36,611 nt of DNA from a virus. Its lineage: Duplodnaviria; Heunggongvirae; Uroviricota; Caudoviricetes. The notes beneath the pieces were generated by a model. The model was not told the DNA's origin and did no database searches. It saw nothing but the letters and a program-made list of their open reading frames with translations. The position numbers were made by a program, and so were the translations under genes. Of the stretch, positions 11,589 through 11,899 are shown piece by piece. Numbering within the stretch: position 1 is the first letter of the stretch; each line of letters begins with the position of its first letter. The DNA lies in the IMG/VR virus record IMGVR_UViG_2874956758_000004, positions 1 through 36,611 of that record, one strand, 5' to 3'.

Positions 11589-11663
11589 TGGAGCGGGCAG
11601 CGGGAATCGAACCCGCATCATCAGCTTGGAAGGCTGAGGTAATAGCCATTATACGATGCCTGC
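11589..11663 (-). tRNA. tRNA-Gly (anticodon UCC), glyT-like, with A3:C70 mismatch in the acceptor stem
   Basis: Reverse complement GCAGGCATCGTATAATGGCTATTACCTCAGCCTTCCAAGCTGATGATGCGGGTTCGATTCCCGCTGCCCGCTCCA; cloverleaf folds, anticodon loop CTTCCAA. Confidence 0.8.
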
Positions 11664-11666
11664 ATA

Positions 11667-11742
11667 TGGTGCCGACTACCGGAATCGAACTGGTGACCTA
11701 CTGATTACAAGTCAGTTGCTCTGCCTGCTGAGCTAAGTCGGC
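11667..11742 (-). tRNA. tRNA-Thr (anticodon UGU)
   Basis: Reverse complement GCCGACTTAGCTCAGCAGGCAGAGCAACTGACTTGTAATCAGTAGGTCACCAGTTCGATTCCGGTAGTCGGCACCA; 7-bp acceptor stem, anticodon loop CTTGTAA, one mismatch in T stem. Confidence 0.75.
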
Positions 11743-11744
11743 GC

Positions 11745-11821
11745 TGGCCCACCACCGAGGACTCGAACCTCGCACCGTCAACTTAGAAGGTTGATGCTCT
11801 ATCCGGATGAGCTAGTGGTGG
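11745..11821 (-). tRNA. tRNA-Arg (anticodon UCU, reads AGA)
   Basis: Reverse complement CCACCACTAGCTCATCCGGATAGAGCATCAACCTTCTAAGTTGACGGTGCGAGGTTCGAGTCCTCGGTGGTGGGCCA; perfect acceptor stem, anticodon loop CTTCTAA. Confidence 0.75.
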
Positions 11822-11822
11822 T

Positions 11823-11899
11823 TGGTGGCCCTTGCTGGACTTGAACCAGCGACCTGGCGATTATGAGTCGCTCGCTCTGACCAACTGAGCTAAAGGGCC
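11823..11899 (-). tRNA. tRNA with CAU anticodon, ileX-like (probable lysidine tRNA-Ile2 rather than Met)
   Basis: Reverse complement GGCCCTTTAGCTCAGTTGGTCAGAGCGAGCGACTCATAATCGCCAGGTCGCTGGTTCAAGTCCAGCAAGGGCCACCA; T arm and anticodon arm resemble remembered E. coli ileX. Confidence 0.75.

Follow-up and report, generated by a model that had tools for sequence, protein, structure and literature searches.

What are four tRNA genes, packed head to tail ahead of the lysis genes of a prophage remnant, likely to be doing there, and does their tight packing call for an unusual route of maturation? The question is raised by the IMG/VR virus record IMGVR_UViG_2874956758_000004, of which the whole stretch of 36,611 nucleotides (nt) was analyzed and is here called the window. 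The array occupies positions 11589-11899 on the minus strand, and its genes are referred to as slots 1 to 4 in the 5'-to-3' direction of that strand. We consider it likely, with a probability of about 65%, that the array is a compact tRNA operon of a lambdoid prophage related to phage 21 and to Shiga toxin (Stx) phages. Its four genes look functional; they would be expressed from a promoter of their own and by read-through from the phage promoter pR', would be matured by standard processing, and would serve codon supplementation. Gene identity, context, conservation, and codon bias are established, and from there on expression, the processing route, and the benefit are what we infer.

The four tRNA genes

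ARAGORN, run on the whole window, detects four tRNA genes and no others; each is on the minus strand, within 11589-11899. Matches to the tRNA family RF00005 (E-values 1e-9 to 1e-13) are the only Rfam matches across the 36.6 kb. The scores, 56.4 to 70.5 bits, all exceed the RF00005 gathering score of 29 bits. The genes are as follows.

11823..11899, minus strand: slot 1, tRNA-Ile2 type, anticodon CAU, ileX/ileZ-like, CCA encoded (ARAGORN Met/Ile2 (cat); Rfam 70.5 bits)
11745..11821, minus strand: slot 2, tRNA-Arg, anticodon UCU, reads AGA/AGG, CCA encoded (ARAGORN; Rfam 56.4 bits)
11667..11742, minus strand: slot 3, tRNA-Thr, anticodon UGU, reads ACA, near copy of host thrU (ARAGORN; Rfam 69.8 bits)
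11589..11663, minus strand: slot 4, tRNA-Gly, anticodon UCC, reads GGA, near copy of host glyT (ARAGORN; Rfam 59.4 bits)

The gene order is thus CAU-UCU-UGU-UCC. Reading of the sequence shows that all four genes encode the 3' CCA and that the mature ends are separated, in array order, by 1 nt (A), 2 nt (GC), and 3 nt (UAU). An earlier annotation made from the letters alone (the sequence-only reading) had described four tRNAs with these anticodons, on this strand and with 1-3 nt spacing; ARAGORN, Rfam, and our own reading of the sequence agree with it down to the exact coordinates.

The CAU gene had been taken to be ileX-like, and this assignment holds: it shows 90% identity to ileX of Escherichia coli K-12, compared to 70% to metT/metU, which excludes an elongator tRNA-Met. 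Its acceptor stem (GGCCCUU/AAGGGCC) retains the pairs C4-G69 and C5-G68, which we take to be TilS determinants. In the near-identical array of E. coli CFSAN029787, PGAP labels the slot 1 gene as tRNA-Ile. The gene is therefore assigned to the Ile2 type, and its product is expected to be converted to lysidine by TilS and to read AUA.

The Arg gene has C1-G72 as its first pair, carries A20, C35, and G73, and aligns to the Rfam model without non-canonical pairs. It shows just 75% identity to host argU, with A20, C35, and G73 kept. The other two genes are near-exact copies of host genes. The Thr gene matches K-12 thrU at 74 of 76 positions, the sole differences being two D-loop bases, and the Gly gene matches K-12 glyT at 74 of 75 positions.

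Codon usage

Codon usage in phage genes (the complete relative vB_EcoS-689R5 and the phage open reading frames (ORFs) of the window) was compared to that in a 50-kb sample of E. coli K-12. For the codons read by the four tRNAs, the frequencies per 1000 codons and the odds ratios are as follows.

AGA: 6.6 in phage, 1.5 in the K-12 sample; odds ratio 4.4 for 689R5 and 6.5 for the window ORFs
AUA: 7.0 in phage, 3.2 in the K-12 sample; odds ratio 2.2 for 689R5 and 2.8 for the window ORFs
GGA: 14.3 in phage, 8.9 in the K-12 sample; odds ratio 1.6 for 689R5 and 1.9 for the window ORFs
ACA: 13.0 in phage, 8.6 in the K-12 sample; odds ratio 1.5 for 689R5 and 1.45 for the window ORFs

When the 61 sense codons are ranked by phage/host enrichment, AGG comes first, followed by AGA (rank 2), AUA (3), and CGA (4), with GGA at rank 8 and ACA at rank 9. 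By our own calculation, the chance that four random codons all fall within the top nine is about 2e-4. The top-ranking AGG is also read by the UCU tRNA, and CGA is read by the argN allele of Stx phages. The lysozyme gene downstream of the array has seven AUA among its 177 codons (39.5 per 1000), and an ipaH-type gene on the same prophage remnant has 18.9 AUA and 17.2 ACA per 1000 codons. For phage SfI, which carries a tRNA-Thr(UGU) at this position, an ACA usage of 17.3% versus 7.1% has been taken as support for codon supplementation (PMC3636060).

The enrichment of the cognate codons thus supports codon supplementation, which we consider the most likely role of the array. Its products would raise the supply of four minor tRNAs for the A-ending codons AUA, AGA, ACA, and GGA, which are rare in the host and over-represented in the genes of the phage and of its cargo, such as ipaH.

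Spacing and processing

Because each 3' CCA almost abuts the next 5' end, the sequence-only reading had proposed that the array would need unusual processing. This proposal finds no support, as similarly short spacers have precedents in phage T4, in Stx phages, and in the valV-valW pair of E. coli. T4 tRNA pairs are made as dimeric precursors that RNase P splits. The annotated T4 spacers measure 1 nt (Gln-Leu), 2 nt (Pro-Ser), and 1 nt (Thr-Ile), so that neighboring tRNA genes are 1-2 nt apart there as well; T4 differs in being virulent and in having unrelated tRNA sequences. Some T4 tRNAs lack an encoded CCA, whereas all four genes of the prophage array encode it. The ileZ-argN pair of Stx phages has a 1-nt spacer, as found between slots 1 and 2. 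In valV-valW, whose spacer measures 4 nt (UCCU), RNase P needs no other enzyme to part the two tRNAs and generates their mature 5' ends, with the 3' ends being completed by 3'-to-5' exonucleases (PMC2190699). Very short spacers that are not AU-rich are common to the valV-valW and leuQPV operons and the prophage array (PMC2190699), although that of valV-valW, at 4 nt, is longer than the 1-3 nt found here.

Pairing of the leader with the 3' RCCA end has been reported to inhibit RNase P (PMC9433436). The nucleotides at positions -1 and 73 of the four tRNAs are C/A, A/G, C/A, and U/U. Since none of these combinations is Watson-Crick, no leader extends the acceptor stem into the inhibiting configuration. 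The array thus fits the pattern for processing by RNase P only: its spacers lack the length or the AU content that RNase E would need, and no pairing between leader and discriminator would block RNase P. Given the precedents and the absence of blocking pairs, the standard route is most likely, by analogy, for the maturation of this array: RNase P would cut at the 5' end of each tRNA, leaving 3' trailers of 1-3 nt, and exonucleases of the RNase T/PH type would trim these to the encoded CCA.

Organization and transcription of the locus

On the minus strand, the order is Q, the tR' terminator, an element of the IS66 family of insertion sequences (IS), a promoter-like element, the four tRNA genes, two hairpins, the S21 holin gene, a 209-aa ORF, lysozyme, and Rz. 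The features other than the tRNA genes are as follows.

14542..14958, minus strand: late antiterminator Q (PF06530, Pfam E = 5.8e-54)
14431..14455, minus strand: tR'-type intrinsic terminator downstream of Q, AAACCCGCC-UCCG-GGCGGGUUUUUU (sequence; fold -18.5 kcal/mol)
11945..14379, minus strand: ISEc8-like insertion of the IS66 family with TnpA/TnpB/TnpC ORFs (Pfam IS66 domains; junctions read)
11909..11938, minus strand: sigma-70-type promoter-like element, TTGCAG (11937-11932), 17-nt spacer, TATTAT (11914-11909) (consensus scan)
11537..11582, minus strand: strong hairpin directly 3' of tRNA-Gly, followed by UUUAAGUUAU (fold -22.5 kcal/mol, z = -3.8)
about 11529-11458, minus strand: second long hairpin downstream
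11081..11296, minus strand: class II holin S of the P21 type, with which the late genes downstream of the array begin (PF04971, E = 1.1e-35)

The array had been placed in the interval from Q to S and on the late-gene strand. Both statements are confirmed, since Q, holin, lysozyme, and Rz are also on the minus strand; in addition, the interval is interrupted by the 2,435-bp IS66-family element. The array is thus phage-borne. A chromosomal tRNA operon is excluded by the flanking Q, tR', holin, and lysozyme and by the fact that the flanks of host thrU and glyT are not shared, even though the Thr and Gly genes copy these chromosomal genes.

The annotated Q homologue has 126 aa, which would correspond to about 14542-14922. 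The short region between Q and tR' presumably holds pR'. The tR' hairpin is absent from the terminator-scan list and was established by reading and folding the sequence; the annotation of phage Nil2 likewise has tR' between q and the tRNAs. The IS66-family element sits 45 nt upstream of the first tRNA, is flanked by the 8-bp target duplication GATGAGTT (11937-11944 and 14380-14387), and separates Q, pR', and tR' from the tRNA promoter. The duplication leaves the -35 element intact. Uninterrupted versions of the locus, 99.7-99.8% identical and without the IS66 insertion, are found in E. coli CFSAN029787 and in the species representatives of Shigella flexneri and E. coli.

Within the promoter-like element, TTGCA (or TTGAT) and TATTAT are the sole conserved blocks across at least six otherwise unrelated upstream families, and they are also found in Nil2. 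Across these families the spacing between the hexamers is constant, and TATTAT ends exactly 9 nt before the first nucleotide of the tRNA (+1). In the window, these 9 nt are the C/G-rich stretch TCTGCCTCC; CCTGCGCCC is another example among the relatives. Such a stretch after the -10 element resembles the discriminator of stringently controlled stable-RNA promoters. The conserved blocks point to a promoter that works independently of Q and whose transcript has a 5' leader of only 0-3 nt. The first tRNA may thus be almost leaderless, with the primary transcript starting either at its mature 5' end or 0-3 nt before it.

Under the preferred reading, this promoter, abutting the first tRNA, would transcribe the array, and during lytic growth Q-antiterminated read-through from pR' past tR' would extend into it. 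In the window, read-through from pR' would first have to cross the 2.4-kb IS. The hairpin 3' of tRNA-Gly is kept in the majority downstream family and is a possible operon terminator or processing signal.

Further downstream, the 209-aa ORF (10448-11077, minus strand) between holin and lysozyme has no Pfam match; in CFSAN029787 it is annotated as the hypothetical protein WP_001300760.1, and other relatives have a YdfR-family gene in its place. Rz is directly followed by a gene for a DUF4406 protein (nucleoside 2-deoxyribosyltransferase-like; 9032-9343, minus strand), beyond which sequences of the IS3 and IS30 families truncate the late operon.

Relationship to known tRNA clusters

The location of tRNA genes downstream of Q is a textbook feature of lambdoid and Stx phages. 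That lambdoid phages often carry tRNAs here, as had been noted, is illustrated by the Stx phage Nil2 and by SfI, Sf6, ST64T, PS3, and P21 (PMC3636060). The latter five have their post-Q tRNAs in the same slot, but one or two of them (Asn GUU, Thr UGU) rather than four (PMC3636060).

The closest correspondence is with the ileZ-argN-argO cluster of Stx phages (Nil2, 933W-type). In Nil2, the order is Q (phage-21-like), tR', ileZ, 1 nt, argN (UCG), 13 nt, argO (UCU), and stx2. Slots 1 and 2 of the window array show 88-90% identity over 172 nt to ileZ-argN in many Stx phages. The two clusters share the position after a phage-21-like Q and tR', the late-gene strand, the homologous first two slots with their 1-nt spacer, and the TTGCA/TATTAT promoter footprint. 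They differ in slot 2, which is UCG in Nil2 and UCU in the window array, and in what follows. The third gene of Nil2, argO, comes after 13 nt and is not present in the window array, where slots 3 and 4 are thrU-like and glyT-like copies after 2 and 3 nt. Downstream, Nil2 has stx, whereas the window array is followed by lysis genes. Because slots 1-2 and the promoter are homologous to those of Stx phages, we regard the array as a known kind of lambdoid tRNA cluster with a variant composition: ileZ, an argN-type gene, and two captured host genes.

The two captured genes resemble members of the host thrU-tyrU-glyT-thrT operon, with identities of 97% (Thr) and 99% (Gly) that include the anticodon arms. 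Relatives with a Lys allele in slot 2 (see below) have a Thr gene that is 100% identical to thrU, and 85 of the 105 listed IMG/VR copies of the Gly gene are 100% identical to glyT. Only the mature tRNA sequences are common to phage and host: homology to thrU and glyT ends at the mature tRNA ends, the host flanks are unrelated, and the phage array lacks tyrU and thrT. The layout of the host operon is thrU, 8 nt, tyrU, 116 nt, glyT, 6 nt, thrT. Capture of thrU and glyT as cDNA of mature tRNAs was considered; this pattern is not diagnostic for it, as CCA is encoded in E. coli tRNA genes in any case and flanks free of constraint diverge rapidly.

Comparison of relatives, including the Nil2 alignment, reveals compensatory changes in slot 2, where both pair 3-70 and pair 30-40 alternate between A-U and G-C. 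In slot 4, pair 6-67 alternates between C-G and U-A. Compensatory changes in stems point to selection for tRNA structure, and thus indicate that the tRNA genes evolve under structural constraint.

Distribution and slot 2 alleles

A 356-nt query consisting of the promoter and the four tRNAs matches, at a coverage of at least 80%, in 601 of 5,426 complete E. coli genomes (about 11%). PGAP labels these matches as tRNA-Ile, tRNA-Arg (or Lys), tRNA-Thr, and tRNA-Gly. The array is thus already known in the sense that it is widely present and routinely annotated; searches of the available literature collection found no paper devoted to this exact four-gene array. A pattern scan of IMG/VR gave, among the matches listed, at least 102 full-length loci with the architecture Ile2, 1 nt, slot 2, 2 nt, Thr, 3 nt, Gly, the sole exceptions among 102 listed loci being two arrays with a last spacer of 4 nt. 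Among the listed arrays, slot 2 is Lys(UUU) with the anticodon loop CCUUUAA in at least 68 loci and Arg(UCU) with the anticodon loop CUUCUAA in at least 34. In species-representative genomes, the slot 2 scaffold is found in E. coli and S. flexneri alone, with three arrays per genome.

The Lys allele is built on the same scaffold and has C33 in place of the near-universal U33 in at least 74 of 120 listed IMG/VR matches. Examples homologous to window positions 11745-11821 are APEC O1 L003:3347-3423 and L009:18359-18435. This allele also has U73 and an A51.C63 mismatch in the T stem, and it is unannotated in some phage records. At position 39 it has G39, replacing the U39 that is needed for cleavage of tRNA-Lys by AriB of the PARIS defence system. 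UGU with C33 is seen in slot 2 of just one E. coli genome, CE0026a (L004); in Stx phages the anticodon is UCG. A hypervariable slot 2 was considered and rejected, as two more IMG/VR scans on the scaffold gave only the UCU (U33) and UUU (C33) haplotypes.

One deviating array is that of E. coli FDAARGOS_943. Its Thr copy (L002:3267-3342) has AAUCAUCAGG in place of AAUCAGUAGG, a change that disrupts two pairs of the anticodon stem as well as the CAG of the CNG motif, which has been reported as a cleavage determinant of P2 Old. Its slot 4 gene (L002:3192-3263) has the anticodon UAC (Val) and a 1-nt deletion. Judged from its sequence, this array could be either a resistant variant or a decaying copy.

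State of the array and its surroundings

The Ile2, Arg, and Thr genes of the window are identical to the common Arg haplotype (at least 33 listed IMG/VR copies). The Gly gene carries a private change, G3 to A (position 11661), which results in an A3.C70 mismatch, and Rfam flags pair 3-70. The A3 allele occurs in none of the 105 listed IMG/VR arrays and in none of four aligned E. coli relatives; it may be a genuine mutation, private to a prophage in decay, or an error in sequencing. The promoter and three of the four tRNA genes are intact.

Around the array, the window contains tail-fibre fragments, transposase ORFs of several IS families, RecT/YqaJ, an integrase, and a second O/P replication module. 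A second copy of the IS66-family transposase is found at about 19953-21485, and both copies have 510 aa. The two replication modules (15464-17739 and 26691-28313) comprise a DnaB helicase with a DnaC/IstB-like loader and lambda O/P-like genes; IS copies lie between them, so that the region combines two or more prophage remnants, as a mosaic or by fusion. The ipaH-type gene (LRR_TTSS and NEL E3 ligase domains) is at 1293-3044 on the plus strand of the same remnant and marks the source as Shigella or Shigella-like E. coli. Because of the Gly A3 allele, the IS insertion, and the loss of virion genes, selection on this copy seems to be relaxed.

Alternative explanations

Several points weigh against codon supplementation by a fully working operon. 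The prophage in the window is a remnant without head and tail genes, and the IS element separates pR' from the array. Pair 3-70 of tRNA-Gly is presumably a minor identity element for GlyRS, and with the IS insertion and the A3.C70 mismatch part of the function may have been lost here. The codon enrichment is a correlation, obtained with 50 kb of K-12 as the reference and not with the genome of the actual host. It is stronger in early than in late genes, although the array heads the late operon. For ACA and GGA it is modest (about 1.5-1.9x), and for ACA it is not significant in the late-gene subset (p = 0.12) or in the window-only subset (p = 0.11).

Of the alternatives, the one that survives best is a benefit to the lysogen, with the array, expressed from its own promoter in the lysogen, being kept mainly because it helps the bacterium to translate AT-rich acquired genes, such as ipaH on the same remnant. 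This would explain why the array is intact in a prophage devoid of virion genes, where, despite the missing structural genes, only one of the four tRNAs departs from the consensus haplotype. The conserved promoter with its C/G-rich stretch after the -10 element is independent of Q, S. flexneri and a Shigella-like E. coli carry three arrays each, and the ipaH gene in the window exceeds the K-12 sample 6x in AUA, about 4.6x in AGA, and 2x in ACA. However, the array is equally conserved in intact, inducible phages, the private mutation in the Gly stem weighs against strong selection in this genome, and a young remnant would retain the array without any selection. We thus regard this explanation as possible but rather unlikely.

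Counter-defence is a further candidate: the array might serve to replace host tRNAs destroyed by anticodon or tRNA nucleases of rival prophages and defence systems (P2 Old, PARIS AriB, PrrC, or HepS type), and not to offset codon bias. Nuclease-resistant phage tRNAs are known to rescue cells with those tRNA-targeting systems. P2 Old, the classic system for the exclusion of lambdoid phages, acts mainly on host tRNA-Thr(UGU), and the prime targets of PARIS AriB are tRNA-Thr(UGU), tRNA-Lys(UUU), and tRNA-Asn(GUU) (PMC12445682, PMC12409363). The tRNA species found downstream of Q in lambdoid phages match these targets, with Thr and Lys in the relatives of our array and Asn and Thr in SfI (PMC3636060). 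The Lys allele of the relatives has G39 in place of U39, the change of which abolishes AriB cleavage, and the Thr gene of FDAARGOS_943 is altered in the 3' strand of its anticodon stem, as reported for Old-resistant phage tRNAs.

For the window array itself, the evidence points the other way. The anticodon arms of its Thr and Gly tRNAs are identical to those of host thrU and glyT, so that cleavage is expected as for the host tRNAs, and overexpressed host tRNA-ThrU gives little or no protection against P2 Old; nuclease-resistant Thr and Gly variants are thus excluded in the window. Anticodon-stem sequences differ from the host in Arg and Ile2 only, and no known nuclease was matched to those changes; the Arg copy has the same anticodon loop and 38/39 junction as argU. 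A nuclease specific for Arg(UCU) or Gly(UCC) did not come up, and the codon-bias ranks are as predicted by supplementation. Counter-defence as the explanation of this array is therefore improbable. It is more plausible, as judged from the anticodon arms, for the relatives with the Lys (C33/G39) allele or the altered Thr gene.

We likewise doubt that the genes, though real, are just decaying passengers of a dead prophage at this locus. The region is full of IS elements, with several transposase families and two IS66-type copies, the late structural genes are missing, and an IS66 element has inserted 45 nt ahead of the array. The A3.C70 mismatch of the Gly gene has no counterpart in the 105 listed IMG/VR arrays or the four E. 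coli relatives. On the other hand, the -35 element is preserved by the target duplication of the IS, the promoter and three of the tRNA genes are undamaged and show no difference from the common haplotype, and an acceptor stem with one A.C mismatch need not inactivate its tRNA.

A broader proposal, which we judge to be quite unlikely, treats the array as a modular unit with two jobs. It would consist of a fixed compact chassis, with a -10 element ending 9 nt before +1, possibly a nearly leaderless transcript, and spacers locked at 1, 2, and 3 nt. Slot 2 would be an exchangeable anticodon cassette that escapes defence nucleases, one scaffold carrying UCU in the window, UCG in Stx phages, and, in relatives, C33 together with UUU or, rarely, UGU. 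The host-identical Thr and Gly genes would serve dosage. The Shigella array would have been domesticated for the translation of ipaH-type genes and, if the proposal holds, would be constitutively expressed in Shigella.

Significance

The array is ordinary in the sense that nothing about it departs from known biology, and we attach little weight to it as a discovery. The negative outcome on processing is useful, since no new mechanism need be invoked for spacers of 1-3 nt. That two of the genes (Thr and Gly) are near-exact host copies, while the two others belong to old phage lineages, may be of interest to specialists. The sole leads for specialist follow-up are the conserved promoter that nearly abuts the first tRNA and the Arg/Lys(C33) alleles of slot 2; given the work on PARIS and P2 Old, these alleles represent a testable lead to counter-defence in the relatives.

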